From the NCBI GenBank assembly GCA_965218425.1, contig OZ244621.1, forward strand, positions 1,632,001-1,696,000: a stretch of 64,000 nucleotides of DNA, read 5' to 3'. Under the pieces are notes generated by a model, which was not told where the DNA came from, searched no databases, and saw only the letters and a program-made list of their open reading frames with translations. How positions within the stretch are numbered: position 1 is the first letter of the stretch; each line of letters starts with the position of its first letter. The translations under genes and the position numbers were made by a program. The stretch is from an uncultured Candidatus Binatia bacterium. Its GTDB lineage: Bacteria > Desulfobacterota > Binatia > UBA9968 > CAXXLF01. This document shows positions 6,049-63,038 of this stretch, in pieces.

Positions 6049-6813
6049 TCATTGCTTGTCCTTAAGAGCGGGCCAGTTTTTATTGGCCTTAACCATATAA
6101 TCGGGAATATCCTTTTCCCATATTCTCGCCACCCCCGGACTCAAGTTGAGATAGAGCTTGCCATCGATGATTTCCCAAGCTGTCGGGTCAATGTCCGCGG
6201 TGATTCCCTGGCTTACCGCGGAGTCCATGGGACGAACCTTATTGCGCAGTGCCGCCTGCAGCATCCGCCGTGCCCCGCAGACCCTGGAGCGGAACCTGCT
6301 GATGGAACATTCCATTACCCGGGCGCCGTCGCGGTAACTCAGCTCTTCGATGTCCACCAGGATGAGCGCCAAGCGGTGCGCCTCAGGGAGCATTTTGACA
6401 GCCTTCTCCACCTCCCCCTGGCTGCATTGTGAGACGGATAGATTGTGGATGGATCCACCGTTTTGCTGTGGAGGATCCCAATCAATAGTTGCCTGAACAC
6501 CCACTCTTTTCCGATAGCGGCGGTTGAAGATTCTTCGCAAGATGCACAGGAGCCACACCCGGGCGTTGGTATCCGCATTATAAGAACTGAAACGTCCGTG
6601 GGCCTGTAGGTAGGTTTCTTGAACCAAGCCTTCCGCCATCTCACTGTCCTGTGCGAGGTAAACAGCACAGGTATAGAGCCAGGGGAGCTGGGAGAGGCTC
6701 GCCGCCTCAAACTCTGCCCCGGTTACCTTTTTCCCCTGATCCCCAATAAACGGCCATAGTCGTTCTTTGTAGATCACAGCACAGGCCCATCTCATCGATT
6801 TAAGATCTCCCAT
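6049..6813 (-). CDS. Divergent ECF sigma factor fused to the C-terminal part of a YHS-domain protein
   Basis: Sigma region 2 (AEGLVQETYLQA...WL) and region 4 (LPEAHRLALILVDIEELSY), then AVSQGITADIDPTAWEIIDGKLYLN...ANKNWP. Confidence 0.7.
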   Translation of the reverse strand: MGDLKSMRWACAVIYKERLWPFIGDQGKKVTGAEFEAASLSQLPWLYTCAVYLAQDSEMAEGLVQETYLQAHGRFSSYNADTNARVWLLCILRRIFNRRYRKRVGVQATIDWDPPQQNGGSIHNLSVSQCSQGEVEKAVKMLPEAHRLALILVDIEELSYRDGARVMECSISRFRSRVCGARRMLQAALRNKVRPMDSAVSQGITADIDPTAWEIIDGKLYLNLSPGVARIWEKDIPDYMVKANKNWPALKDKQ

Positions 6814-6856
6814 TTCATTCGAAAGTCGGCCTTGAATTTCACGCTTACATGTCCAG

Positions 6857-6911
6857 ATTATAAAAGAAGGAGATAAAGAACCAATAAAGCGATTGTAAAG
6901 ATACGGTAAAG
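6857..6911 (-). promoter_or_regulatory. Promoter with perfect -10 and four 11-bp-phased direct repeats (OmpR/PhoB-type boxes)
   Basis: TATAAT (minus strand) at 6857-6862; TAAAG (+ strand) at 6874, 6885, 6896, 6907. Confidence 0.65.
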
Positions 6912-6933
6912 ATCGAGGACCTGGGGGAAGGGG

Positions 6934-8013
6934 CTAAAGGGGGACGGTAAACCCTATGCGGGTCTCGGCCAGAGAACTTTCGGCACTCACCTGGCCACCA
7001 TGGGCTTCCACCAACTCCTTAACGATGGCAAGGCCTATACCGGCCCCACCATGTTGACGGGAACGAGACTTTTCGCCTCGGTAGAAACGTTCGAAGACAA
7101 ACGGAAGATCCTCATTGGTGATACCTTCTCCAGTATTGGCGAAGACCCACTTGACGGAAGCCGTGGACCTTTCGGCATAGATCCTGACCTTGCCGCCTGA
7201 GGGGGTGTACTGCCAGGCGTTGTGTAGGAGGTTCCTGAAAACCTGCGCAAGTTTTTCGGGGTCCACGAGCACCTCATAGTTTCCATCAGGAAAAATTTTC
7301 TCAATTTGAATTCCTTTTTCCGCAAACTTGTGCCGGAAGAGTTCCAGGCTGCGTGACCCCATCTCCAGTAGATCCGTTGGCTTTCGTCTCAGGCTTCCCC
7401 TGGATCCCTCCGCATGGGCCAGTTGGAGGAGATCTTCTACCAGTTGGGCCAACCGGACGGTTTCCTCCTGGAGGGACTCCATGGTTTCTTTCGAGGGTGC
7501 CACCACTCCATCGCTCAATGCCTCTAGATATCCCCGGATGTTTGTCAGAGGGGTGCGTAGCTCATGGGCCACATCGATTACCATAGTCTTCCTCAGTTGC
7601 TCGATCCTCTGGAGACTTTCGGCCATTTGATTGAAGGCGGAGGCCAACTGACCGGTCTCGTCGTTGGAAGAGATCCGGACACGGGCGGAATAATCCCCCG
7701 AGGCGATTTTCCTCGTAATCCCTGTCATTTGAGAAAGGGGATTCAATACCTTTCGGGTCAGAAGAAAGCTTAGGAACACCGCAAGGGCCAGGGTAGCAAG
7801 GCTCGCCCATATGAGGGAACGATGGGTGGCTTCCAGAAACATCCTGTGAACGGAGGACGGAGAGATGTTGTACTCATCCATCAACGTCATGAAATAATCC
7901 GAGGCTAGATAGTCGATGGCAAGCCAAACGATGAGAATGACCACGCCGATGACGAGGATGTTGATCCCCAAAAGTTTCCAGAGAAGGCGGCTTTTCATTT
8001 TCAGTCTAATCAT
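6934..8013 (-). CDS. HAMP-containing sensor histidine kinase (BaeS-like)
   Basis: 2 TM, HAMP, AHELRTPL H-box, NLLHNA, GGAGIGLAI. Confidence 0.93.
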   Translation of the reverse strand: MIRLKMKSRLLWKLLGINILVIGVVILIVWLAIDYLASDYFMTLMDEYNISPSSVHRMFLEATHRSLIWASLATLALAVFLSFLLTRKVLNPLSQMTGITRKIASGDYSARVRISSNDETGQLASAFNQMAESLQRIEQLRKTMVIDVAHELRTPLTNIRGYLEALSDGVVAPSKETMESLQEETVRLAQLVEDLLQLAHAEGSRGSLRRKPTDLLEMGSRSLELFRHKFAEKGIQIEKIFPDGNYEVLVDPEKLAQVFRNLLHNAWQYTPSGGKVRIYAERSTASVKWVFANTGEGITNEDLPFVFERFYRGEKSRSRQHGGAGIGLAIVKELVEAHGGQVSAESSLAETRIGFTVPL

Positions 8014-46940: not shown

Positions 46941-48208
46941 TGACCTGCCCCCAGGAGTGGTACCACCCTTTAAGTTAGAGCCGGAATTATCTGGAGTCCA
47001 GCCCATGGGGATGAATTCCCAGCCTGCGCTCTGGGCAGAAAGGCCTCCGGTGCCGGAGGACGATAGCCCAGGGCGCTGTGAGGCCGCCTCTGGTTATACT
47101 CTCTTCTCCATCTTTCGATCAGCACCTGAGCTTCCCTCAGGGTTTCAAACACCTCCCGGTTGAGCAGCTCATCCCTGAGTTTTCCGTTAAAACTCTCCAC
47201 GTAGCCATTCTCCCAAGGACTGCCAGGCTCGATGTAGAGTGTCCTGACACCAATGGCCTTGAGCCAGTCCCGGATAGCCTGAGCCGTAAACTCGGGGCCA
47301 TTGTCGGACCGAAGGGACTGCGGCACGCCCCGTTCCACGAATAGCTCCGCTAACCGTTCCAGCACATCCCGGTGATTCATCCGTCTGGCCACATCAATCG
47401 CCAAGCACTCCCGGGTGTATTCATCCACGATGCTCAACAGCCGAAAGGCCCGACCGTCTTCGGTTCGCTCGTGCACGAAGTCATAACTCCACACATGGTT
47501 TCGATGCGCCGGTCTCAGGCGAATGCAGGAGCCATCAGTCAACCGGAGCCTCCCTCGCTTAGGCTGACGGCTGAGGACTTTCAGCCCTTCCTGCCTCCAG
47601 AGCCTCTCCACTCGCTTGTGGTTGACCTTCCACCCCTGCCCACGCAGCATGGCCGTAATCCTCCGGTAGCCGTATCGCCCGTATTCGCTGGCCAGCTCCA
47701 TCATCCGAGCCACTAGTCTTGCTTCCTCTTCCGGGATCTCTCGGACTCTTCGTTGCGTCGATCGCGGCTGTCCCAACACTTGGCAAGCCCGGCGTTCGGA
47801 GACTCGATCAGGTCCCAATCTTTCTCTGGCCCATATCACCGCTCGTCTCCTCTTCGCCGGGCCTAGAAGTTTCCCGAGGACACTTCCTTCAGGATCTGGT
47901 TGTCCAGCGATAGATCCGCCACCAGCTTCTTCAACCGCGCATTCTCCTTGTCCAAGGCCTTGAGCCTCTTGGCCTGATCCATCTTCAGGCCTCCATATTC
48001 CTTCCTCCACCGGTAGTAGGTCTGCACGGTTACCCCCACCTGCTTGCACACCTGGCCCACCGCCTTCCCTTGGGCCAAGCTCACCTCCGCCTCACGCAGC
48101 TTGAGGATAATCTGCTCGGCCGTAAATCGCTTTCTTGCCATCCTTGCCTCCTTCCTAAAATCAAAATCCCTAACATTTCACCTGGACTCGTTTTAGGGGG
48201 CAAGGTCA
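46941..48208 (-). mobile_element. IS3-family insertion sequence
   Basis: Ends TGACCTGCCCCC / GGGGGCAAGGTCA; TCAC duplicated on both sides. Confidence 0.92.
46970..48141 (-). CDS. IS3 transposase OrfAB (-1 frameshift at GGGAAAC, 47869-47875)
   Basis: OrfA HTH ([11 protein letters not shown]); Orf[25 protein letters not shown]. Confidence 0.9.
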
Positions 48209-48964
48209 TCACGGCCCTTGCGCATTGAATATCGGGGTGCGGTCCATCATTTGATGAACCGAGGATCCGCCCGCCGAAAGGTGTTCCTCAGCAGGGCCGA
48301 CTATGGGGAATCTCTGAAAACGGTTTTACAGGCACACGATCTATGGGGGGTAGAAGATCCGGTGAGGAGCCGCAGAGGGGAGGAAAGTCGGGATGTGCCT
48401 GATGAAGAGGCTAAGCGACATGACGTTGGCGGAAGCAGCCGGGGAGTTTTGGAGTGAAGAGTCGCGGTGCGGCGGGCCGGGCGCGCCATGGGATTCGCTT
48501 AAAGCGTGGGGCGGATAGAGGAATTCGGAGGCGGCCGGAAAATCCGGAAGATGTTATTTGTCAATAAAAGATTTGACCTCTTTGTCGATCACCCAGACCA
48601 TCTATGACGAAAATGGTGACGTGGTGTATGGCCGCTCCGGAGTTGGTGAATTCATCAGGGAATGTAGTTTTGGAATGACGACTTCGGAAAATTGGCCGGC
48701 AGGAAGAATTGCAATTTCGCTTAGGGATAGACATCGGGGGCACGGACCGCCGACAGCATCGCGGCCGACATCCTGAAAGAGTGACGGGGCTTGCGCCCCG
48801 CCTCCATCTTTCACGCCTTTTGTTTAGCAAACCTTCTCAAAAATATGGTAATGCTCACCCGGGGTCATCCGGTTATGGCTTGTCCCGTTGTCCCAGGCAC
48901 GTTACGGCTATCGGCGCGCGGCCGGGCAAAGAGATGGGCTCGCACGGTTATAGGAGTTAGAGTG

Positions 48965-50086
48965 ATGGAATTACACCGAATCACCGGCAATATGACGGCC
49001 CGGTTTGGCGGGCCGGTGGTTGTCGGCGTCTTGTTCCTCGCCCTCGGCGCATGGGGCCGTTCGTCCATTGCGGCGGATTGCGGGGACTGGAACACAGAGG
49101 AGTTCTTCAAGACGGCGACGCCCATGACGGTCAGGGATTGTCTGGCATCCGGAGCCGACATCAAGGCGAGGGACAAGAACGGCGAGACCCCCCTGCACCT
49201 GGCGGCAGGGTTCAACAAAGATCCTGCCGTCGTCGCCAAATTGATCGACGGCGGAGCCGACATCAAGGCGAGGGAAAAGAACGGCGAGACCCCCCTGCAC
49301 TTTGCGGCAGGGTTCAACGAAAATCCTACCGTTTTCGCCAAGCTGATCGGCAGCGGAGCCGACATCAAGGCGAGGGACAAGTACAGCTGGACGCCCCTGC
49401 ACTTTGCGGCAAGGGACAACGACAATCCCGCCGTCGTCGCCAAATTGATCGACGGCGGAGCCGACATCAAGGCTAGAACCAAGAACGGCGAGACCCCCCT
49501 GCACCTGGCAGTAGGGTTCAACAAAGATCCTGCCGTCGTCGCCAAATTGATCGACGGCGGAGCCGACATCAAGGCTAGAACCAAGAACGGCGAGACCCCC
49601 CTGCACTTTGCAGCAGGGGACAACGACAATCCCGCCGTCGTCGCCAAATTGATCGACGGCGGAGCCGACATCAAGGCTAGAACCAAGAACGGCGAGACCC
49701 CCCTGCACTTTGCAGCAGGGGACAACGACAATCCCGCCGTCGTCGCCAAATTGATCGACGGCGGAGCCGACATCGAGGCGAGGGACAAGTACAGCTGGAC
49801 GCCCCTGCACCTGGCAGCAGGGTTCAACAAAAATCCTGCCATGATCGCCGCGCTGATCGACGGCGGAGCCGACATCGAGGCTAGAACCAAGAACGGCGAG
49901 ACCCCCCTGCACCTGGCAGTAGGGTTCAATAAAAAAAATCCTGCCATGATCGCCGCACTGATCGACGGCGGAGCCGACATCGAGGCGAGGAACAAGAACG
50001 GCAAGACGCCTTGGGATTGGGCGCAAGGAAACGCGGCCCTCAAGGGAACCGACGTTTGGTGGCGGCTGAACGAGGGGCGCTTCTGA
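48965..50086 (+). CDS. Secreted ankyrin-repeat protein
   Basis: Signal peptide; eight full 34-35 aa GADIxAR..TPLH repeats plus a partial ninth. Confidence 0.9.
   Translation: MELHRITGNMTARFGGPVVVGVLFLALGAWGRSSIAADCGDWNTEEFFKTATPMTVRDCLASGADIKARDKNGETPLHLAAGFNKDPAVVAKLIDGGADIKAREKNGETPLHFAAGFNENPTVFAKLIGSGADIKARDKYSWTPLHFAARDNDNPAVVAKLIDGGADIKARTKNGETPLHLAVGFNKDPAVVAKLIDGGADIKARTKNGETPLHFAAGDNDNPAVVAKLIDGGADIKARTKNGETPLHFAAGDNDNPAVVAKLIDGGADIEARDKYSWTPLHLAAGFNKNPAMIAALIDGGADIEARTKNGETPLHLAVGFNKKNPAMIAALIDGGADIEARNKNGKTPWDWAQGNAALKGTDVWWRLNEGRF
49151..50010 (+). repeat. 102-bp tandem repeat array (ankyrin units)
   Basis: Near-identical DNA units; units 5 and 6 encode identical peptides. Confidence 0.9.
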
Positions 50087-52245: not shown

Positions 52246-52408
52246 CAAAAGACGACATGGCCGAGCCGCTCCACGTCATGCGGCGGCGTCTTGACGCATA
52301 TTGCAGCAGCCGCCACCTCGTGGTGTCGGGACAGTTCAACCTGGGAGGCGACGGTGGCGGGAGAGCTTTAGTGCTCCCTCAATAACTTTTGAGAAGGCGA
52401 GATGAATC

Positions 52409-52433
52409 ATGTCAAATGTCAAGGTCTGACCCC
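52409..52433 (+). repeat. RAYT-type terminal motif, family C (ATGTCAAATGTCAAGGTCTGACCCC)
   Basis: Same ...TGACCCC terminal architecture as families A/B; single copy here. Confidence 0.5.
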
Positions 52434-53208
52434 GAACATAGTGGCCGTTGGTTCCAATGGCAGCGTATACGCGGCCAAGATGACAAAGGAACTTAAGGAT
52501 TGGCAGTCTCAACAAAAAGGCCTAAAGCGACTGAGGAGAATGCTGGATAACGTAAGCGAGGCCGTGAGACTGGCAATAACAGTGAGATTGAACGAAAAAA
52601 AATTGACGGCCGATGACGCGCAACGGATTCACTGGGACATAGTGTGGCGATTGTCTCACCGGTTCGGGTATGTCGATTACGCGACGACCCTTGACAACCT
52701 GTATGCGGATATCGTAGAAGATTCCTACAAATATTTTCACACCCTTGGGAGCATATACTATGACACCGAACCAGGAGGAATTAATCTCAATAATCGACCC
52801 GCCAACACCGTTTTCTTCCTTGAAGGAGTGGAGGGAGTTCCAGCATTCATTGGACTCAAAGACTCCCCGGGACCAGAGGTTCAAGGAGTGGGCGGGGGAG
52901 GTAATCAAACTCAAGATCCAGGCTCAGAAGGAGGGCCTGGCAGCGCCCAAGAAGTTTCCCCCACAACCGGCATAGCAGAGGACCCACGCACTTACGGCCT
53001 GCCCGACTTCCGCATGAGGCAGGACGACATACCCCAATCTTCCACCCCGATAAAGAATAACTACCACCCCCCAAACACCGCCGAAGGGCGGCAGATAAAG
53101 AGACGCCAGGACATCATCGACAATCTCTCCCAGGCCTTCCAGATCCCGATCCGCACGGGCAAGGGCAGTTTCGCGCAAAGGAAAGCCCGGGCGTTCTTCA
53201 AAGTCAAA
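52434..53208 (+). pseudogene. Internal fragment of a large, possibly phage-like protein
   Basis: Open frame with no start or stop of its own; bounded by RAYT-end sequences on both sides. Confidence 0.45.
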
Positions 53209-53368
53209 GATGAAGAGGCTAAGCGACATGACTTTGGTGGAAGCAGCCGGGGAGTCTGGAGTGAGGAGTCGCGGTGCGGCGGGCCGGGCGCGCCATGGGA
53301 TTCACTTAAAGCGCGAGGCGGCTGGAGAATCCGGAAGATGTTATCTGTCAACAAAAGATTTGATCCCT
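53209..53368 (+). repeat. RAYT-element end, family B copy 3
   Basis: High similarity to 48401-48580. Confidence 0.8.
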
Positions 53369-54087
53369 TTGTTAAGGTTTTTGTGCGCCTGTCTCCATCT
53401 GTCGGCCACGCCGATTACAAATGTTCGAGCAAGTTGGTAACGGCCCCTAACCTCATCAAAGGTAATTGAGCGCCCCTTTACTCTCAGCCCTTGTCCTTGC
53501 TTTCGCGAGATCGGGGATAGACCACCTGACGATAAAAACCTGTCTTCGCTCAGGAAATACTGTGAATGGCTCACAGCGTTTCGGAGATAGGGGTCCCAAA
53601 GCCGCTCTAGCACACCGCCAATCTTGATGCACAAGCTTTTCGACAAACGGCAAATTTCCTCGATCTTCTCACCTGGGTACTCGCAGATCTGAGTGCAGCC
53701 TGCATTTGAAACTCTTGTAAATGTCCATGACTCAGGACTTCCAGAGGCGGCTCGTAACAGATTCCAAACAATTGCGAGTGGAAGATCTGATTCCATGATT
53801 CGACAATAGCCGGCTAGCATTAGACGAATCTTGTCCTTTTCGGGCAATGATGTACGTTTTACTAGTAAATCAACAAGTGCAATGAAATCCTCGAGTTCAA
53901 AATATTCGTAGCTCGGAATATGAGTCACAATTTTCTGGCCAGGTAGAAGTTCTCCTGGGAGTTCGGCGTCGGTAGGTACAACCGCATTCCAAAGTGCTTT
54001 TCGATCGATGCTCGCACAGATTTTAAAAACTTCCGCAAGTGATTCGATAATCTCTTGCTCAGTCAACGAGCCATTCCCCAATTTCAT
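53341..54087 (-). CDS. Hypothetical protein with HEPN-like RxxxxH motif
   Basis: LRNAVSH; AT-richer than flanks; stop codon lies inside the family B repeat. Confidence 0.55.
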   Translation of the reverse strand: MKLGNGSLTEQEIIESLAEVFKICASIDRKALWNAVVPTDAELPGELLPGQKIVTHIPSYEYFELEDFIALVDLLVKRTSLPEKDKIRLMLAGYCRIMESDLPLAIVWNLLRAASGSPESWTFTRVSNAGCTQICEYPGEKIEEICRLSKSLCIKIGGVLERLWDPYLRNAVSHSQYFLSEDRFLSSGGLSPISRKQGQGLRVKGRSITFDEVRGRYQLARTFVIGVADRWRQAHKNLNKGIKSFVDR

Positions 54088-54249: not shown

Positions 54250-57200
54250 TCACGTTCCCTCTCCGAGAACCTCGACGACCTCAGCGATCACCTGCAGCGG
54301 CCCCTCGTCCGTGCCGGTTAGGATGATCGGCTCGAAGTCCGCGTTGACAGGGTTGAGTATGATTCTCGTATGGTGCCATGAGTCTCCGTCGCCGGCCTTC
54401 TCGCTTTTGTAACGCTTGACGGTGTAGCGCTCGCCGCTTTCCGGATCGGCGGCGTCGCGCATCTGCACGAGCACCGTCTTGCCCTGGCGCGTGCCCTCGA
54501 CGGGCGCCGCGAAGAGGCAGTACGCGCCGTCGGGGATGGCCGGCTCCATGGACTTGCCGACCACCTGGGCGACGAACATGCCACGACGGAGGCGGCGCTT
54601 GGTCTCGACTGCCGCCCATTCATAGTCATCGTCATCGATGTACTGGAGGTCGCTGAATGCGCCCGCGGCGGCCTTGAGAGGGACGAGCGGCACGCAGGTC
54701 ACGTAGCGCTCCTCCGGCTGGGGCTCGACGATACGCAGGCGTGCCGGAAGCGCGCTGGGTCCCGCGTGCTCCTCTCCTCCGCGAGTGTCGTCGCTTCTCA
54801 GCCGCCGATACGCCTGCGACGCCATCCATGTCGTCACGAGCTTCTGGAAGGGCGCGTCGTTCATGAACCGGACGAAGATCTCCTCGTTCTGATCCATGCG
54901 CTCGACGAACAGATTCTCCAACAGGCTCTTGAACACCAGCTCGAACTTGTCGCCCGGATTGACCGCGGCCGCCTGTCGCAGACCGTCGTCGGCCATGGCC
55001 GCTTCGACAATCTGATCGAAGAAGAGCTGATCGGCCTGGTTGAAGTCCGTGCCGAAGCGTTCGTTGACGATGTCGATGAGCTGGGAGAGCGGCACCGACT
55101 GCTCGTTCGCAGCGCCGCTACCGACCTCGGTGGGCCCATCCAGGGCGCCCGCAACGCCGTCCCGGAGCGAGATAGAGCCTTCGCTGATCTTCTGCAGGCG
55201 GTAGTACTCGATCCGCACCTCGTCATCGAACTGGTACGCCGGGCCACTCTTGCGACGTGGCAGCTTCGCCACGAGATGGCGGAGGAACACGTACAGTTGC
55301 TCGAGATCCGAGTCCTGGTACGGAATCACCTGGCTCAGGAACCCATACAGATTCAAAAACGCCTGCACCTTGCCGCGCCAGTCTTCCGCCCCCTCCTCGT
55401 TGTCGTCCCGGCGGACCGTGAATCGCGACACCGCCGGATCGAGAGCGGCGTTCATGGTCCGGTGATCCAGCGCACTCTGCCGACGCTTCGGCTTGAAGTA
55501 GACGTCTCTGAACCGCTCAACCTCCTCATCGAGGTAGATTCCCGAGGCATCCAGCTCGCCCTTGATCGCGTACATGCGGGCGGGGTCGACTTCCTCGCCC
55601 ATCTCGGAACCTTCGTAGTAGGTCTTGAAGGCCTCGCGAATCTCCTCCCTGTCGTTCACGAAGTCGAGAACGAATGTGTCTTCCTTGAGCGGGTGAATGC
55701 GGTTCAGCCGGGAGAGGGTCTGAACGGCCTGAATGCCCGCGAGCCGCTTGTCCACGAACATCGTGTGCAGCAGCGGTTGATCGAACCCGGTCTGGTACTT
55801 CTCCGCCACGAGCAGGACCTGATACTCCTGCGTCGCGAACTTCTCAGGCAGCTCTTTCTCGGAGATGCCCTGGTTCATGCCCGGTTCGGTATAGGTGACG
55901 CCTGCGAGCTTGTCGTCCACCACCGTGCCGGAAAACGCCACCAGCGACTTGATGGCGTAGCCCTTCTTCCGGATATAGCGATCGAAGCTCTGCTTGTAGC
56001 GGACCGCTTCGAGGCGCGACCCCGTCACCACCATCGCCTTGGCCCGGCCGCCGATCTTGTGCCGCGTGACGGCCTGGAAGTGCTCGACCATCACCTCGGT
56101 CTTCTGCGCGATATTGTGCGGATGCAGCCTCATGAAACGCGCCAGCGCCTGCGCGGCCTTCTTGCGCTTTACGTTGGGATCGTCCTCGCACGCCTTGAGC
56201 AGCCTGAAGTACGTCGCGTACGTGGTGTATTGATTCAGCACGTCGAGGATGAACTCTTCTTCGATCGCTTGCCGCATGGTGTAGCGGTGCGCCGGCTGCC
56301 CATCGCGGCCGAACACGGCGAGCGTCTTGTGCTTGGGCGTGGCGGTGAAGGCGAAGAAGCTCAGGTTCGCCTGCTTGCCGCGCTTGGCCATGCTGCGGAA
56401 GAGCTCTTCCATGTCTTCCCGGCCTTCCTCGGACGCGCGCTTCTTGGCTTCGTCCCGAAGCCCCTCTCCGCCCAGCACTTCCTTGAGATCGGTCGCCGTC
56501 TCGCCGCTCTGAGAGCTGTGCGCCTCGTCGACGACGACGGCGCAACGCCGGGTGGCGAGCGTGCCCGTGCCTGTCGTCCCGCGTTCCTCGGCCATCTTGA
56601 GCAAGTGGCGCGAGACGAAAGGGAATTTCTGCAGTGTTGTGATGATCACCGGCACCGCATTCTCGAGCGCTTCGGCGAGTTGTCGCGAGCTCTCGTCGAT
56701 CCGCTGCACGACGCCCCGCTTGTGCTCGAACTGGTAGATCGTGTCCTGGAGCTGCTGGTCGAGCACGACGCGATCCGTGACCACGATAACGCTGTCGAAA
56801 ACGCGCTGGTTGGCGGCATCGTGCAGGGATGCGAGCCGATGCGTCAGCCAACCTATGGTGTTGCTCTTGCCGCTGCCTGCCGAATGCTCGACGAGGTAGT
56901 TGTGCCCCACGCCCTCGCTGCGGGCGGCGTCCACCAGCATGCGCACCGCCTGGAGTTGGTGGTAGCGGGGGAAGATCATGGCCTCCGTCTTGACCTTGCG
57001 GCCCCGGTCGTCGCGCTTCTCGTCCATCTGCAAGTGGATGAAGCGGGCGAGGAGGTCGAGCAGGCTGTCACGCCGCAGCACCTCTTCCCATAGGTATGCC
57101 GTGCGGTAGGTCCGGCCCGCCGGATCAGGCGGGTTCCCGGCCGCTCCGTCGCAGCCTTTGTCGAACGGAAGAAAATGTGTCGCCGCGCCGGCGAGCCGCG

Positions 57201-57804
57201 TGGTCATGAGCACGGACTCGGTATCCACGGCAAAGTGCACCAACGTGCGCCGCTTGAACTCGAAGATCGGCTCGCGCGGGTCGCGGTCCTGCTTGTACTG
57301 TCGGCGTGCATCCTCAACGGTCTGTCCGGTGAGCGGGTTCTTCAGTTCCAGCGTAGCCACGGGAATGCCGTTCAGGCTCAGCGTGACATCCAGCGACTTC
57401 TCGGAGCGTGGCGAGAAGCGGAGCTGGCGGGTAAGCCCCAGACGGTTGGCGGCGTAGCGGGATTCAAGCTCCGGATTCAACTCGTGCGCCGCCTTGAAGT
57501 ACGCCGCATGGAGCGTTCGCCCGTAACACTTGAACCCGTGTCGCAGCGTCGCAAGCGCGCCGTTGCCGTCCATCCACTTGCACAGATCGCCGAGGATCTG
57601 CTCTCCGGTCTTGTCGCCGTGCAGCGACTCTAGCTTGGCCCATTCCTTCGGTTGGGTCTCGCGGATGAAGGCGAGGACCGTCTCGGGAAAGATCGCGCGC
57701 TCGCGGTCGAAGCCCTCGCGCGCGACCGTCACATACCCGTTCTCAAGCAGGTGCGCTTCGATGACGGTCTCGAAGGCGGTTTCGGAGTGACGACCTTGGC
57801 TCAT
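54250..57804 (-). CDS. hsdR: Type I restriction subunit R with C-terminal S24 (LexA-like) peptidase domain
   Basis: LELKN nuclease motif, HSAGSGKS, DEAHSS, FTATP, QTGFD, SRLNR; tail AAAG..GKSM..TVKR. Confidence 0.93.
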   Translation of the reverse strand: MSQGRHSETAFETVIEAHLLENGYVTVAREGFDRERAIFPETVLAFIRETQPKEWAKLESLHGDKTGEQILGDLCKWMDGNGALATLRHGFKCYGRTLHAAYFKAAHELNPELESRYAANRLGLTRQLRFSPRSEKSLDVTLSLNGIPVATLELKNPLTGQTVEDARRQYKQDRDPREPIFEFKRRTLVHFAVDTESVLMTTRLAGAATHFLPFDKGCDGAAGNPPDPAGRTYRTAYLWEEVLRRDSLLDLLARFIHLQMDEKRDDRGRKVKTEAMIFPRYHQLQAVRMLVDAARSEGVGHNYLVEHSAGSGKSNTIGWLTHRLASLHDAANQRVFDSVIVVTDRVVLDQQLQDTIYQFEHKRGVVQRIDESSRQLAEALENAVPVIITTLQKFPFVSRHLLKMAEERGTTGTGTLATRRCAVVVDEAHSSQSGETATDLKEVLGGEGLRDEAKKRASEEGREDMEELFRSMAKRGKQANLSFFAFTATPKHKTLAVFGRDGQPAHRYTMRQAIEEEFILDVLNQYTTYATYFRLLKACEDDPNVKRKKAAQALARFMRLHPHNIAQKTEVMVEHFQAVTRHKIGGRAKAMVVTGSRLEAVRYKQSFDRYIRKKGYAIKSLVAFSGTVVDDKLAGVTYTEPGMNQGISEKELPEKFATQEYQVLLVAEKYQTGFDQPLLHTMFVDKRLAGIQAVQTLSRLNRIHPLKEDTFVLDFVNDREEIREAFKTYYEGSEMGEEVDPARMYAIKGELDASGIYLDEEVERFRDVYFKPKRRQSALDHRTMNAALDPAVSRFTVRRDDNEEGAEDWRGKVQAFLNLYGFLSQVIPYQDSDLEQLYVFLRHLVAKLPRRKSGPAYQFDDEVRIEYYRLQKISEGSISLRDGVAGALDGPTEVGSGAANEQSVPLSQLIDIVNERFGTDFNQADQLFFDQIVEAAMADDGLRQAAAVNPGDKFELVFKSLLENLFVERMDQNEEIFVRFMNDAPFQKLVTTWMASQAYRRLRSDDTRGGEEHAGPSALPARLRIVEPQPEERYVTCVPLVPLKAAAGAFSDLQYIDDDDYEWAAVETKRRLRRGMFVAQVVGKSMEPAIPDGAYCLFAAPVEGTRQGKTVLVQMRDAADPESGERYTVKRYKSEKAGDGDSWHHTRIILNPVNADFEPIILTGTDEGPLQVIAEVVEVLGEGT

Positions 57805-58451
57805 GCCCCCATCCTTGCGAGCTTTTGGCCCAACAGCCAGACCGCGACCTGAACATATGGAGCGAGTTCCCCGACTCCTGCGTCACGTCTGGTTCGCTCG
57901 CGTTCGAGCCGTTCACGAGGCACACGGCCGTGATTCCGTTTCTTCTGGTTCTCCCACCATTCGAGTACCGCGTCGTAGACGCCCTTCCGATTGTTCTTCA
58001 GTTTGGCGAGGTTCAGATTCAACACGTTGTTGAGCTGGCCATCGAAACCTGCCTCATCCGCGTGGATCGAGCCATCCGGCTCGTACCGGATGCGGGTCTC
58101 GATGCGATGCGCCTGGTTGGCGGGATTCCACTCAAGGTCCCTGTCCCCCTTCCTCGTGTCGCAGTGCTGGAGGTGAGCCGGTTGTCCATGCCCGCCGAGA
58201 CAGGCGCCGAGGAGATTCCGGTAGTTGAGTTGTTCGTCTTGGTGGTCTTTTTGGTCCCTCCAGTGCTCGATCTTCATGGACGCTCGCTCGGGGCGGATGC
58301 GACCCATGCAGTAGCAGCACAGCCCGTGCTGCTCGATAACAAGGGCGTGTCGAAGATCGTTCTTCGGCACGTAGTTGTCATAATCGCAGTGCGGTGTCTG
58401 GCGATGCGACCTGAGGCTTGCTGGTTCGCGACCCTTGGTGATCGCCCTCAT
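57801..58451 (-). CDS. HNH endonuclease (TIGR02646/PtuB-like)
   Basis: EQHGLCCYC, KIEHW, YRNLLGAC..HCDTRKG, LNLN. Confidence 0.85.
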   Translation of the reverse strand: MRAITKGREPASLRSHRQTPHCDYDNYVPKNDLRHALVIEQHGLCCYCMGRIRPERASMKIEHWRDQKDHQDEQLNYRNLLGACLGGHGQPAHLQHCDTRKGDRDLEWNPANQAHRIETRIRYEPDGSIHADEAGFDGQLNNVLNLNLAKLKNNRKGVYDAVLEWWENQKKRNHGRVPRERLERERTRRDAGVGELAPYVQVAVWLLGQKLARMGA

Positions 58452-59764
58452 TCCTCGCCCTCCATAAAATCGAGGAGGGTTCGGATTCGGGTGACTTCGG
58501 GATCATTCTCGCCAAGCCGGTCGACGAGTTGTGCCAGCAATTCACGTGCGCTCTCGTACCGCTGATTACTAACTTCGTGGGACACCTGCGAGAGTAGCAC
58601 GTCGACTTTCTGAGTGCGGGGGTCTGCACCCATGATTTCTTCCAGGACCCGGCTCGAGTCCACCCCGAAGGAATGGGGAGGCGAATAAACCTCGCCTTTC
58701 GAGATGATCTGGATGTGATCGTGCTCGACCTCGCCAATGACTTGCGGCGAATGGGTCGTGGCGATGAACTGGCAGCGCGGGAACGTCGTCGTGAGTTTGT
58801 GAACGATCTGCCGCTGCCAAGACGGATGGAGGTGCAAGTCCAGTTCATCGATTAGGACTACAGCCTCGCCCTCCTGCAGCGGATCGTCAAGATTCGGATT
58901 TGCCTGGGACAACCGCTTTGCAAGGTCGAGGACCATGCCAAGTACGCCTCGCTCTCCATCAGACAGCTGGCTCACATCGAGCGTGGTGCCATGGCTGTCA
59001 ATCAAGAGGCTAGAGGCATCTTCATTGTGTCGGATGTTCTGACAACTCGGGAGGAATCGGGTTGCTGAGACCTGGAGGACTTCTAGATGCCGAGCGGCAA
59101 CTGGTAACTCGGCAGCCAAGGTGGATTGCGTGCGCATCCACTCGGCGAACTGCCTAACCTGCCATGGTCTTGAAACTAGCGCTTCGGCATATGCAGCTGC
59201 TCTGCCACCCGAGGTCTTGCTTTTTGGAGCCTTCGCCCCAGCGACGACGGAGCGATTCGTCGCGAAAAAGACGCAGTTTGGGGCCATTTTGAGCGCCCGT
59301 GCCGTTCGGGAGAGTTCGCCCTTCCCAGGGAACAGCGTATCGGAATCCGAGACTCCGTGCGAATCTTCAAGGTCCCTTAGCAGATTTCGCGCACGATCCC
59401 GTAGACGTTCTGACTCCAAAATTTCCCTGCGAAGACGTTCGATGTTCTCTTCATCATCGGCTGCGAATTTCGTTTTCCACTGCCGTCGAGTCAAACGGAA
59501 TTCCTTGTCGCCTAAATTGGCGTCCAGCGAAACGTCCAAAAAAGGGAATCCGGCCCGTATGTCGTCGACGACAAAAGACATCGCCCTTGACCGGCTATTA
59601 GAAATCGAAGGAAGGACCCGTGACATGCAAATGCGAATCGCGTCCAAAATTGTGCTCTTGCCGACACCGTTGACTCCCACAATTAAGTTCAGTCCAGTTT
59701 TAAACGAGAACTCCGCAAACTCTATGGCGCGCAAGTTCGCGAGATGGAGACGCGTTACTCTCAT
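58448..59764 (-). CDS. ABC/AAA_21-type ATPase (PtuA-like)
   Basis: GVNGVGKS, LSDGE signature, LIDELDLHLHPSWQ, TTHSP. Confidence 0.88.
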   Translation of the reverse strand: MRVTRLHLANLRAIEFAEFSFKTGLNLIVGVNGVGKSTILDAIRICMSRVLPSISNSRSRAMSFVVDDIRAGFPFLDVSLDANLGDKEFRLTRRQWKTKFAADDEENIERLRREILESERLRDRARNLLRDLEDSHGVSDSDTLFPGKGELSRTARALKMAPNCVFFATNRSVVAGAKAPKSKTSGGRAAAYAEALVSRPWQVRQFAEWMRTQSTLAAELPVAARHLEVLQVSATRFLPSCQNIRHNEDASSLLIDSHGTTLDVSQLSDGERGVLGMVLDLAKRLSQANPNLDDPLQEGEAVVLIDELDLHLHPSWQRQIVHKLTTTFPRCQFIATTHSPQVIGEVEHDHIQIISKGEVYSPPHSFGVDSSRVLEEIMGADPRTQKVDVLLSQVSHEVSNQRYESARELLAQLVDRLGENDPEVTRIRTLLDFMEGEE

Positions 59765-61053
59765 GCCGCTTCCCCAATGTCGATCTGGCCAGTTACAGCA
59801 GCAGCGATAAGGGCTGTTCGGCGCTCTTTGAGAAGGGTTATAGTTCGATCCGTAGCCTCGACTAGGCGATCGAGGCGAGACGTCCTTTCACGTAGACTTG
59901 CCACGATAGCCTTCTGTTCGGAGGGTGGGGGAAGTGGGACCTCCATGTCGTTTAGCGTCTCAACAGTTAGTTGATTGATCGTCGACGTGGAAAAGGCACC
60001 CGCTTGATAGTCAAAGAGCGGAGAGTTGAAGATGTAGAAGAGATACTCATTGTGAGGACTCCGAAAGACAGTCATGAATGCACCAAACGTCAAGCCAGTA
60101 GCAGCTTGAACTATCAGAGCGTTCTTGCCAATCAATGTACGGCTACCGCTTCGCGAGCAGATAAGTATGTCGCCCAGTCTGGTTCTGAGATTCTCGGGAA
60201 TGTCCATCAGAACAAACAGCTTGTCGTCGAGAATGATCTTCTGGTCTTGGACATTTGAGGCTCGCAACACAAGAACACCGCTACCGTCGGTGACCGTGTC
60301 CGCTGGATCGAACGTTAGCCCAATGATTGCCTTGCCAACGTGCTTGAGCCGCTTGAGATCCCAATGCGCCGGAATCTCGCCGAGCCAGGGGATGCTGGAG
60401 TCTCGTAGCGGGGCGTGGGGGTCAAGGCCACGGGTGACGGCGCGGGTGATGAGCGCCCGGCGCTTCTCGGCCAACAGCCCGAGCACCCGCTCCTTTGCCG
60501 CCACTAACGCATCCAGCCGCGCCGTTTCGCGGTCGAGGTAGTCGGCGATGGCACGTTGCTGATCAAGCGCCGGCACTGCGATCTCGGTTTCTCCGACGAG
60601 ATCCGATTCAAGGCTCTCAACCGTACTGCCTACTTTGCTCCAAACGTTTAGTAGTTGCTGCTGATGCCCTTCTAATAGTCGGGCAAGAAAACGCGCCTCA
60701 AGCTGCGGGAACGGGATCAATGCGCGCATGTCTTGATTCAAAGCGATCGACACTCGATTAATCGCAACCGGAATCGAATGGCGCAGAATGCCCGAGCGCA
60801 TTACGAGCAGGACGGCACCAGGGGCAACGAGTTTGGTCGCACTGCTTTCGAGCCCATCTGTCGTGATGTGATCTTCCGTGTCATCGACGGTTGCGCTCCT
60901 CATATCCTTCGGCGACACCCAAGGAATTTCGCCATTCCAGTACTCTGGATTCCCCTTGTCTGGAGTTCCCCCACCTGCGAAACGACAGAGGTACTTGATG
61001 CGCTTGCGCGGCCAAGTAGTCGGAAACGCTGAGCCCCAGGAGACGGTACTCAC
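59761..61053 (-). CDS. hsdS: Type I restriction specificity subunit S
   Basis: Two TRDs with PALDQQRAIADYLD / PPPSEQKAI and LIAAAVTG conserved regions. Confidence 0.92.
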   Translation of the reverse strand: MSTVSWGSAFPTTWPRKRIKYLCRFAGGGTPDKGNPEYWNGEIPWVSPKDMRSATVDDTEDHITTDGLESSATKLVAPGAVLLVMRSGILRHSIPVAINRVSIALNQDMRALIPFPQLEARFLARLLEGHQQQLLNVWSKVGSTVESLESDLVGETEIAVPALDQQRAIADYLDRETARLDALVAAKERVLGLLAEKRRALITRAVTRGLDPHAPLRDSSIPWLGEIPAHWDLKRLKHVGKAIIGLTFDPADTVTDGSGVLVLRASNVQDQKIILDDKLFVLMDIPENLRTRLGDILICSRSGSRTLIGKNALIVQAATGLTFGAFMTVFRSPHNEYLFYIFNSPLFDYQAGAFSTSTINQLTVETLNDMEVPLPPPSEQKAIVASLRERTSRLDRLVEATDRTITLLKERRTALIAAAVTGQIDIGEAA

Positions 61054-63038
61054 TCCGTCACCTCCCGCAGCAAGCGCATGATCTTTTCCTCCTCTTGCTT
61101 CAGATCCGCGTCGATCTCTTCCAGCGGGCGCGGAGGCGTGTACTTGTAGAAGTGCCGGTTGAAGTTGATCTCGTAGCCGACCTTGTCCTTGCTGCGGTCC
61201 ATCCAGGCGTCGGACACGTGGGGGCGCACCTCGCGTTCGAAGTAGGCGTCGATGTCGTCAGTGAGCGGCACGTTCTCGAAATCCCGCAGGTCGGCATCCG
61301 GCTCATACCCGTTGTCGCCCCCGCCGCTGGCGACGGGCTCGGCTTCGGGGTCCTTTTGGGTGAAGACGCTGCGGAAGAGGTTCCGCTCGGTCGCCTTCCA
61401 CCGGGACTTGCGCGAGTGCAGCACGTCTTCGATACAGCTCCACTCCGCATTCCAGTCGCGCTTCGGCTCCCGCCCCAGCTCCTTGTCGATGGCCTGCACG
61501 TCGTCGAGCAGGTGCGGGCACGCATCGAGGAAACGGGCCTTGTCTTCCAGGGTCATCTGGTAGCGCAGGCGCAGGGGCCGCTCGACGGTCACGCGGGTGT
61601 AGCCGAAGTCGGCGTTGTCGAAGGTCTTGGAGGTCTCGCCGTCGATCCGCCGGCCGTAGATCTTCACGATCTCGTCGATCTGTCTGCGGGTGAGGTGGCG
61701 GCGCTTGTCGCCGAGGCTCCGCTTGTTGTCCTCGCCGCCGCCCGCGGTCCACACGTCGCGCGCGTCCAGGAGCTGGATCTTGCCCTTGCGTCGCTTTTCC
61801 TTGCGGTTGGTGATGATCCAGACGTAAGTGCCGATGCCGGTGTTGTAGAACATCTGCTCGGGCAAGGCGATGATGGCCTCGAGCCAGTCGTTCTTGATGA
61901 TCCACTTGCGGATGTCGCTCTCGCCCGAGCCCGCGCCGCCGGTAAAGAGAGGCGAGCCGCTGAAGACGATCGCTAATCGAGAACCGTGCTTGCGCTCTTT
62001 AGGACGCACTGGCTCGAACTTGCTAATCATGTGCTGCAGGAAGAGCAGCGAGCCGTCGTTCACGCGCGGCAGCCCGGCACCAAAGCGGCCGTCGGAACCG
62101 CGCTTGTCGTGCTCCCGCTTGATCTCCTTCTGCTGTTTCTTCCAGTCCACGCCGAAGGGCGGATTGGTGAGGAAGTAGTCGAATGACTCGTCCGCAAACC
62201 GGTCATCGGTGAAACTGTCACCGAAGCGTACGTTGTCGCCGCTACCATTGTGATCCACCTGTTTCATCAGCATATCGGACGCGGCGGTGGCGAATGCGCG
62301 CTTGTTGTAGTCCTGCCCATAGACGTAGAGCTTCGCCGCGCCATGATGCTCACGCAGGTAGTTCTGGGCCTCGGCCAACATCCCGCCGGTGCCGCAGGCG
62401 GGGTCGAGCAGCTTGCGGACGGTGCCGGGTGTGGCGAGCAGTTCGTCATCCTGGATGAACAGAATGCTTACCATCAGCCGGATGACCTCGCGCGGCGTGA
62501 AATGGTCGCCTGCGGTCTCGTTGGCCAGTTCGTTGAAGCGGCGGATGAGGTTCTCGAAGATTAACCCCATCTGCTCGTTCGGCACCGTGTTCGGGTGCAG
62601 GTCGACATCGCAGAACTTCGAGACGACGAGATAGAGGATGTTCGCCTCGCGCATTCGCTCGACCTCGTTCTCGAACTCGAAGAAGTCGAAGATGTCGCGC
62701 ACGTTCTTCGAGAAGCCCTTGATGTAGCTGACGAGGTGCTTCTCGATGTTGTCGGGGTCGCCCTTGAGCTTTTGGAAATCGAGGGGGGAGTGGTTGTGAA
62801 AACGCTGGCCAGCGGCTTTGTTCAGCCGCTGGTCCAAGGCTTCGCCCTCGACCTTGCCACCCTTGAGCCTTGCGTGTTCGGCCAGGACCTTGGCTTTCGA
62901 CGGGGCCAGCACGCAGTCGAACCGGCGCAGCACCGTCATGGGCAGCATGACACGCTCATACTGCGGGGGCCGGTACGGCCCCCTGAGTAGATCCGCAATT
63001 TGCCAGATCAGGATAGCGAAATAATTGTGATCCGCCAT
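61050..63038 (-). CDS. hsdM: Type I restriction N6-adenine methyltransferase subunit M
   Basis: IWQIADLLRG, GDHFTPREV, DPACGTGG, NPPF, FYNTGI. Confidence 0.95.
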   Translation of the reverse strand: MADHNYFAILIWQIADLLRGPYRPPQYERVMLPMTVLRRFDCVLAPSKAKVLAEHARLKGGKVEGEALDQRLNKAAGQRFHNHSPLDFQKLKGDPDNIEKHLVSYIKGFSKNVRDIFDFFEFENEVERMREANILYLVVSKFCDVDLHPNTVPNEQMGLIFENLIRRFNELANETAGDHFTPREVIRLMVSILFIQDDELLATPGTVRKLLDPACGTGGMLAEAQNYLREHHGAAKLYVYGQDYNKRAFATAASDMLMKQVDHNGSGDNVRFGDSFTDDRFADESFDYFLTNPPFGVDWKKQQKEIKREHDKRGSDGRFGAGLPRVNDGSLLFLQHMISKFEPVRPKERKHGSRLAIVFSGSPLFTGGAGSGESDIRKWIIKNDWLEAIIALPEQMFYNTGIGTYVWIITNRKEKRRKGKIQLLDARDVWTAGGGEDNKRSLGDKRRHLTRRQIDEIVKIYGRRIDGETSKTFDNADFGYTRVTVERPLRLRYQMTLEDKARFLDACPHLLDDVQAIDKELGREPKRDWNAEWSCIEDVLHSRKSRWKATERNLFRSVFTQKDPEAEPVASGGGDNGYEPDADLRDFENVPLTDDIDAYFEREVRPHVSDAWMDRSKDKVGYEINFNRHFYKYTPPRPLEEIDADLKQEEEKIMRLLREVTE

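Follow-up and report, generated by a model that had tools for sequence, protein, structure and literature searches.

The DNA analyzed here is a stretch of 64,000 nucleotides (hereafter, the window) from an uncultured Candidatus Binatia bacterium (contig OZ244621.1 of assembly GCA_965218425.1, positions 1,632,001 to 1,696,000). It contains a type I restriction-modification (RM) operon in which the restriction subunit HsdR carries an additional domain at its C-terminus. According to our analysis, this domain is by profile, motifs and predicted fold a complete member of the Peptidase_S24 family, with a LexA-type Ala-Ala/Gly site and a Ser/Lys pair. Sequence comparisons place the fused protein, HsdR-S24, in a large fusion family that crosses phyla, and it is not a peculiarity of one gene. 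We tentatively interpret the module as a switch that may turn restriction off during DNA damage.

The hsdR-S24 gene is an open reading frame (ORF) at 54250-57804 on the minus strand, which encodes 1184 residues with no internal stop codon and closes a five-gene minus-strand operon, where the stop and start codons of adjoining genes overlap. The Pfam scan revealed HSDR_N at residues 118-206, SWI2_SNF2 at 282-525, ResIII, and a T1R_D3-like domain at 650-708. The nuclease domain, the SF2 motor and domain 3, together with hsdM and hsdS upstream on the same strand, characterize the product as a type I R subunit. The match to the NCBIfam hsdR model TIGR00348 extends over residues 119-731, with nothing beyond 731, and stays below the cut-off (191.6 versus 284.55 bits); judged by this score, the HsdR of the window is therefore a divergent HsdR lineage. 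The last helix of the helical region ends at residue 1004 in a low-confidence model of the full-length protein.

The segment 54250-54738 corresponds to residues 1023-1184 and the stop codon, and residue 1023 is the point at which conservation of the module starts in the relatives. The preliminary description of this DNA had suggested an in-frame S24 autopeptidase of the LexA/CI type with intact Ala-Gly, Ser and Lys, and this reading is borne out by the motifs, by Pfam, by the LexA profile match and by the fold. The three motifs are VPLVPLKAAAGAF (residues 1038-1050), VVGKSMEP (1081-1088) and YTVKRY (1127-1132). The Ala-Gly bond lies about 37 residues upstream of the serine, within a strand of the form V-P-L-x-x-L-x-A-A-A-G that resembles the cleavage site of LexA, the motif of which is V-A-A-G; A1047-G1048 is the scissile bond predicted from position alone. 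The Pfam search proposed in the preliminary description placed Peptidase_S24 (PF00717) at residues 1044-1177 (E = 6.9e-6), where its score of 26.2 bits exceeds the gathering score (23.3), and the match runs nearly end to end, over profile positions 5-116 of 116. Outside this match, which starts at 1044, the module contains an extra conserved N-terminal strand with the consensus xLRIVxPxPxxRY.

A single-sequence phmmer search of the module against the PDB sequences retrieved no LexA or S24 protein, just four spurious matches. A profile built from 56 modules gave four matches in the PDB, all of them LexA C-terminal-domain chains (best E = 1.4e-3), with GkSM aligned to GDSM of LexA and tvKrY aligned to TVKTF. 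The AlphaFold model of residues 1000-1184 is beta-rich (predicted local distance difference test score, pLDDT, 86.7; predicted template modeling score, pTM, 0.80). In the Foldseek comparison of this model with the PDB, the top matches were LexA, lambda repressor and UmuD (best E = 1.2e-5; target-normalised TM 0.62-0.72); all 23 matches at E<=1e-3 were LexA or lambda repressor chains, with UmuD next at E = 1.4e-2. According to the titles of the PDB entries, the matches include complexes of LexA, CI and UmuD with RecA filaments. The identity of the module to the solved S24 proteins is 15-29%.

The fusion is widespread. When the last 175 residues were used as a query against long proteins (651-2072 residues), 1852 matches among 4525 candidates shared the in-frame module, at 60-95% identity; in the best 120 of them the module was 73-95% identical, and 112 had HsdR domains and 8 were Type ISP enzymes. 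When 1.84 billion cluster representatives were searched with no filter, 1862 matches had E<=1e-3, 1086 of them reaching 1e-10 and 177 reaching 1e-30. Species-representative genomes were scanned with two peptide patterns: at least 599 stretches matched them, at least 498 of which encode a relative, and the best 80 loci (60-86% identity) were retained. Based on the record titles, these 80 loci span more than a dozen phylum-level groups: Gammaproteobacteria, Acidobacteriota, Binatia, Entotheonella, Chloroflexi, Nitrospiraceae, Gemmatimonadetes/Longimicrobiales, Rhodothermales, Planctomycetes, Opitutales, Latescibacterota, Methylomirabilota, Myxococcota, Deltaproteobacteria, Dormiibacterota, Hydrogenedentota and Spirochaetes. 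The titles mark all of them as metagenome-assembled genomes (MAGs), with the exception of Corallococcus sp. RDP092CA (L050), which is one cultured host, and of an uncultured proteobacterium (L052). In the annotated collections, there was one match of 41.5% identity, unannotated, in a Halomonas replicon, and no phage match at E<=1e-6.

The 121 close relatives show no variation at residues A1046, A1047, G1048, S1085, M1086, K1130, R1131 and Y1132. The conservation of the catalytic residues in homologs, on which the preliminary description had made its reading depend, also holds in the wider family: among 344 distinct modules, 308 have residues at all four positions, and Ala-Gly, Ser and Lys are kept in 300 of these. 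Taken separately, L1043 is present in 309/317 modules, A1046 in 315/318, A1047 in 316/318 and G1048 in 313/318, the catalytic serine in 335/336 and the catalytic lysine in 332/333. Such a pattern indicates strong purifying selection on exactly the residues of self-cleavage. The full-length HsdR-S24 of the window type is 76-97% identical end to end in 68 of 69 relatives (44% in the remaining one), and identities of this order across MAGs of different phyla therefore point to horizontal spread. HsdM is 73-87% identical among related loci, and hsdS (27-56%) and the cargo genes are variable; the HsdR-S24 system thus appears, on these identities, to move horizontally as a unit, with hsdS and cargo changing.

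The module is found on many kinds of enzymes. The Pfam scan covered 75 of the best 150 cluster representatives, namely those of at least 240 residues, minus two typed earlier. Restriction, nuclease or helicase domains were identified in 37 of the 75: Type_ISP_C in 11, HsdR in 6, MZB/DEAD in 4, SLFN-g3 helicase in 3, HNH in 3, PLD in 2, MmeI-like/N6_Mtase in 2, SLFN_AlbA_2 in 2, and LlaJI, McrBC, RE_endonuc and ResIII-Helicase_C-MerR in one each. Two others had a helix-turn-helix (HTH) domain, and 36, many of which look like fragments, showed S24 only or nothing. In the 80 loci, 78 of 81 host ORFs were scanned (three shorter than 150 residues were omitted) and comprised 38 HsdRs of the window type, 14 Type ISP enzymes, 7 HsdRs of the HindI type, 4 DEAD/MZB giants, one HTH protein and 14 ORFs with S24 only. 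Two kinds of HsdR therefore bear the module, and HsdM_N and Methylase_S, the family domains of HsdM and HsdS, were found on none of the scanned hosts. Judging by these domain matches, the module is portable and rides on the component that cuts or translocates DNA. The largest host seen, L054:3464-10504, is a protein of 2347 residues that combines a PLD nuclease, an SNF2-type helicase, Type ISP specificity and a C-terminal S24. The nearest non-fused relatives retrieved by the searches have the HTH-S24 architecture of repressors (P0166, P0188 and L067; 49-57% identity).

In most host ORFs the module lies at the very C-terminus, with 0-21 residues beyond the match. About 200 residues follow it in L028:4926-9524, L059:9731-11092 and L068:1-1017; these tails include two tandem units of about 60 residues (…RD.AI..LAR.LGY.R.G..I…LRTAVRRGV…), for which the Pfam scan gave no match at the threshold applied. 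Three HsdRs of the HindI type have the module in an internal position (L058:9002-12736, L071:8975-12745 and L077:9206-12757), where it splits the ATPase domain (Pfam SWI2_SNF2), with the AGYHQFHAV segment on one side and the GVVWHTQGSGKS P-loop (GSGKS) on the other; we read these from the sequence as the Q motif and Walker A, respectively. In BLASTP comparisons, residues 41-324 of the L058 protein correspond to 4-287 of the L044 protein and 502-1242 to 291-1020 at 71% identity, and the L058 module (329-491) is 61% identical to the C-terminal module of L044 (1031-1193). AAAG, GxSMEP and TVKRY are intact in all three inserts. The L077 locus contains, 6 kb upstream of its intact internal-insert HsdR, a second, degenerate S24 fragment (L077:3015-3455; 42% identity) that lacks the region of the catalytic lysine.

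A neighbour-joining tree of 106 modules (Biopython; two short sequences dropped), which is descriptive and carries no support values, grouped most modules by host type; the exceptions were a PLD protein inside the ISP group and the C-terminal modules of the HindI type, which fell in at least two places. This branching is consistent with several separate grafting events, after which the modules spread together with their host enzymes.

Based on these results, we tentatively propose that RecA*-stimulated self-cleavage of the S24 module may shut restriction off during DNA damage by exposing a degron of the ClpXP type. RecA filaments formed on single-stranded DNA would stimulate the Ser1085/Lys1130 dyad, which would cut the A1047-G1048 bond and set free an S24 fragment of 137 residues. 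The remaining HsdR body would end in Pro-Leu-Lys-Ala-Ala-Ala, and this new C-terminus (Leu-x-Ala-Ala-Ala) would, as in LexA, be a degron that proteases of the ClpXP type can recognize once it is unmasked. HsdR would be removed and the HsdM/HsdS methylase would stay, and restriction would be alleviated while repair and recombination generate unmethylated chromosomal sites. In this scheme, we infer the cleavage, its triggering by RecA*, the loss of restriction and its completion by a ClpXP-type protease from the module and from the precedents given below.

Three features of the family make us favor loss of restriction as the outcome. The hosts are mainly classical RM enzymes, which have to act promptly on incoming DNA and for which the known danger is self-restriction after damage and repair. 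A cut in the internal modules of L058, L071 and L077 would split the nuclease from the motor, which fits inactivation better than the removal of a lid. Finally, the residues that would form the new C-terminus are near-invariant, with Leu at P5 and Ala at P2 and P1. The promiscuity of the module would also be explained if a degron tag works regardless of the protein upstream of it. As for precedents, LexA-like proteins bear ClpXP C-degrons directly beside their cleavage sites, as described in parts of PMC5742171 and PMC6590174; in E. coli, a terminal Ala-Ala, aided by an upstream Leu, is stated to be a critical ClpXP signal in passages of PMC10862746; and damage-induced restriction alleviation in types IA and IB is attributed to proteolysis of HsdR by ClpXP in sections of PMC12707154 and PMC4231737. 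Built-in, RecA*-triggered restriction alleviation, one of the roles considered in the preliminary description, is thus a plausible reading and the one that we prefer.

Several observations weigh against this proposal. The similarity to characterized S24 proteins is weak (15-29% identity, profile E of about 1e-3), and the RecA* interface may differ. A model of the full-length protein based on 70 near-identical relatives has a pLDDT of 49.4 and a pTM of 0.29, at which the docking of the module on the HsdR body is unreadable. The degron screen in E. coli prefers Leu at P3, where the module family has Ala or Val, and a terminal Ala-Ala was insufficient on its own in 39% of such tags (both from passages of PMC10862746). 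An enzyme may stay active after losing a domain appended to its C-terminus, and for hosts such as the PLD, HNH and Schlafen-like proteins, which have no obvious methylase partner, activation by cleavage is just as logical. An LexA-like protein that acts independently of RecA has been reported (in part of PMC7101444). No SOS box was found near the operon, the scan with the consensus CTGT-N8-ACAG giving one match at chance level far off; a box at the operon is not required for inactivation through self-cleavage of the enzyme.

The opposite polarity is an unlikely alternative: S24 would hold the enzyme inactive or tethered, and RecA filaments on intermediates of phage replication or recombination would trigger a self-cleavage that frees the nuclease. 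A cleavage-competent-looking module on PLD, HNH and Schlafen-like proteins without a methylase domain speaks for such an infection sensor, since conditional activation would be sensible there, and UmuD provides a precedent for activation by S24 cleavage (as presented in part of PMC6590174). However, the hosts belong for the most part to the classical RM enzymes (type I, ISP and MmeI-like), which have to attack entering DNA before methylation takes place and already have the means to discriminate self from non-self. Cleavage of the three internal modules would part the nuclease from the motor within the ATPase domain, and the conserved Leu-x-Ala-Ala-Ala end looks more like a degron than like a neutral stub.

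We consider it similarly improbable that the switch is independent of RecA, i.e. that it responds to another cue (the stalled or translocating state of the enzyme, a phage protein, pH or another stress), serves constitutive maturation, or is mainly a dimerisation domain. The modules form a distinct and tightly conserved subfamily distant from LexA, CI and UmuD, with the extra N-terminal strand described above, and a RecA-independent LexA-like protein has been reported, as already mentioned. Nevertheless, the nearest non-fused relatives retrieved have repressor architecture, LexA, CI and UmuD all have solved complexes with RecA filaments according to the PDB entry titles, and an invariant dyad speaks against the module being structural only.

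The preliminary description had also suggested that the module could sense phage replication and release the neighboring ATPase-HNH pair. In the window, the slot between hsdS and hsdR holds ptuA and ptuB, the stop and start codons overlapping from gene to gene, and PADLOC recognizes the two as a Septu gene pair. We surveyed this slot in 30 loci with a window-type HsdR-S24 and an upstream HsdM at least 70% identical; PADLOC was run on 65 of 96 ORFs in the slots, and the 31 others were mainly hsdS and small ORFs. A PtuA-type ATPase occupies the slot in 16 of the 30 loci and PtuA plus PtuB in 15 (both by PADLOC in 11, with PtuB supplied by tblastn in 4 further ones). The other 14 loci are without PtuA. 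Eight loci contain a gene for about 380 residues matching RmrA/capP of PADLOC, usually followed by an ORF of about 165 residues, and one of these also has PtuAB. The remaining slot content includes a type II RM pair, a pAgo/SIR2-like gene, PDC-S06, PD-Lambda-5, HEC-01A and PDC-S05, and in four loci nothing was recognised. Because a PtuA-type ATPase is present in just 16 of the 30 slots, with other content elsewhere, PtuAB is, on the gene content of these loci, variable hot-spot cargo and has no fixed partnership with the S24 module. CapP is a DNA-damage-responsive metallopeptidase, and a second protease-type regulator may for this reason share the operons that bear RmrA/capP.

Activation or release of the PtuA-PtuB pair by cleavage of HsdR-S24 consequently seems very unlikely. 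The overlapping genes in the window and the presence of a PtuA-type ATPase in the same slot of about half of the loci are in its favor, but the others have different cargo or nothing recognised, and the module occurs on at least ten other kinds of nucleases and helicases with unrelated neighbors. An artefact (a frameshift, a missed stop or a chimeric assembly that joined HsdR to a separate repressor-like gene) was considered just because the fusion is unusual, found no support, and has a negligible probability given that no stop separates the domains in the continuous ORF, that the 1852 long proteins have the same fusion, and that 70 full-length relatives align end to end, with the fusion recurring in independent assemblies of many phyla.

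The features of the operon and of the module are listed in Table 1.

Table 1. Positions of the operon genes, of the parts of hsdR-S24 and of comparable cargo slots. Positions are those of the window unless a locus is named.
Feature	Position	Strand	Basis or remark
hsdM, type I methyltransferase subunit, 662 residues, operon gene 1	61050-63038	minus	Pfam N6_Mtase 1.2e-54, HsdM_N 3e-25; PADLOC MTase_I 2.6e-260
hsdS, specificity subunit, 430 residues, 4-base overlap with hsdM	59761-61053	minus	Pfam Methylase_S twice; PADLOC Specificity_I 5.8e-99
ptuA-like ABC/AAA ATPase, 438 residues, cargo within the type I operon	58448-59764	minus	PADLOC PtuA 9e-120; Pfam AAA_21, AAA_15
ptuB-like HNH protein, 216 residues, second cargo gene	57801-58451	minus	PADLOC PtuB 2.9e-71, HNH_I-A 9.7e-33; no Pfam match
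HsdR body, residues 1-1004: nuclease, SF2 motor, helical C-terminal region	54793-57804	minus	Pfam HSDR_N, SWI2_SNF2, ResIII, T1R_D3-like; PADLOC REase_I 1e-33
Variable linker, residues 1005-1022	54739-54792	minus	Weakly conserved alignment positions among 121 relatives; pLDDT near 58 in the model of the module
S24 (LexA-like) autopeptidase module, residues 1023-1184	54253-54738	minus	PF00717 above gathering score; LexA C-terminal-domain profile match; LexA/CI/UmuD fold
Ala1047 and Gly1048 codons, predicted scissile bond	54661-54666	minus	Position relative to Ser as in LexA-type sites
Ser1085 codon, predicted nucleophile (G-K-S-M-E-P)	54550-54552	minus	Aligned on the LexA GDSM serine
Lys1130 codon, predicted general base (T-V-K-R-Y)	54415-54417	minus	Aligned on LexA TVKTF
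hsdR-S24 stop codon	54250-54252	minus	
RmrA/capP-type slots in L014, L015, L036, L038, L039, L041, L042, L076	e.g. L015:5320-6462, 6465-6956		

The two ORFs adjoining the 3' end of hsdR-S24, 53341-54087 (minus) and 52402-53469 (plus), had no Pfam or PADLOC match, and no counterpart of the former was found across the 80 related loci. A promoter and terminator scan gave matches only at the level of shuffled sequence. Farther away, an IS3-type transposase gene (rve, rve_3 and HTH_21) is located at 46970-48049 (minus), about 6 kb from the operon, and the G+C content is 0.51-0.54 at 50-54 kb, between this gene and the operon, and about 0.6 in the operon. The gene at 48791-50086 (plus) encodes a protein of 431 residues that consists almost wholly of ankyrin repeats nearly identical to one another (Pfam Ank_2, 6.1e-73); the long ORFs antisense to it are probably spurious and due to this repetition.

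In comparison to known systems, the module shares with LexA, lambda CI and UmuD the fold, the PF00717 family, the Ser/Lys dyad and an Ala-Gly bond at the same distance from the serine. Its low identity to these proteins put them beyond the reach of a single-sequence search, and the strand that it adds upstream of the site sets it apart. The partner of the peptidase in LexA and CI is an HTH DNA-binding domain, whereas in HsdR-S24 it is a restriction enzyme of 1000 residues with no HTH; the domain composition thus indicates that HsdR-S24 is not a repressor of the LexA/CI type. The outcome that we propose is the same as in the ClpXP-dependent restriction alleviation of EcoKI-type enzymes, where, according to parts of PMC12707154 and PMC4231737, HsdR is proteolysed upon damage and modification continues. 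However, EcoKI has no self-cleaving domain, and the protease there recognises the complex as it translocates, whereas in HsdR-S24 a RecA*-responsive autopeptidase within the enzyme would unmask the degron.

The closest likeness for such a degron is offered by LexA, IrvR and HdiR, the latent C-degrons of which are located directly upstream of the autocleavage site and work once they become C-terminal, as outlined in part of PMC5742171. HsdR-S24 has the conserved Leu-Lys-Ala-Ala-Ala in the equivalent position, and its suggested role as a degron follows by analogy from the E. coli rules. The cargo of the degron in these three proteins is a repressor domain, whereas that in HsdR-S24 is an enzyme. 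Defence genes inside type I RM operons, including Septu, also have their counterpart here in the strong PADLOC matches to PtuA and PtuB within hsdMS-hsdR, as in 15 of the 30 related loci; in this family they are variable cargo and not a fixed partner of S24.

Full-text literature searches, the scope of which did not include subscription journals and supplements, revealed no published fusion of S24 to a restriction or defence enzyme; apparent matches were dismissed as table numbers, signal peptidases or LexA-type HTH proteins. The terms S24, LexA and peptidase have 0 occurrences in a review of RM biology from 2025 (PMC12707154). Database names split the parts of the fusion, with one fusion protein called SOS-response repressor LexA and others entered as type I R subunits or type ISP enzymes. 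Overall, HsdR-S24 is a new and widespread combination of known parts, which implies a new control logic.

In conclusion, an explanation of how restriction enzymes spare the host cell once its DNA is damaged is available for just a few type I families of E. coli. A broader view of the family is possible, although we hold it to be somewhat doubtful: one portable autopeptidase with a masked degron would have been added time and again to the killing subunits of restriction and defence enzymes of at least ten kinds, in over a dozen groups of phylum rank and at times within the motor domain itself, and would wire them to RecA filaments, so that damage leads to self-cutting and degradation, as a general, post-translational and enzyme-autonomous form of restriction alleviation and autoimmunity control with no dedicated regulator. 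If the module is indeed a self-destruct tag triggered by RecA*, it would represent a widespread, modular answer to self-restriction after damage and a new use of LexA chemistry beyond transcription and mutagenesis, and it would be a natural damage-inducible degron that can be moved onto other proteins.

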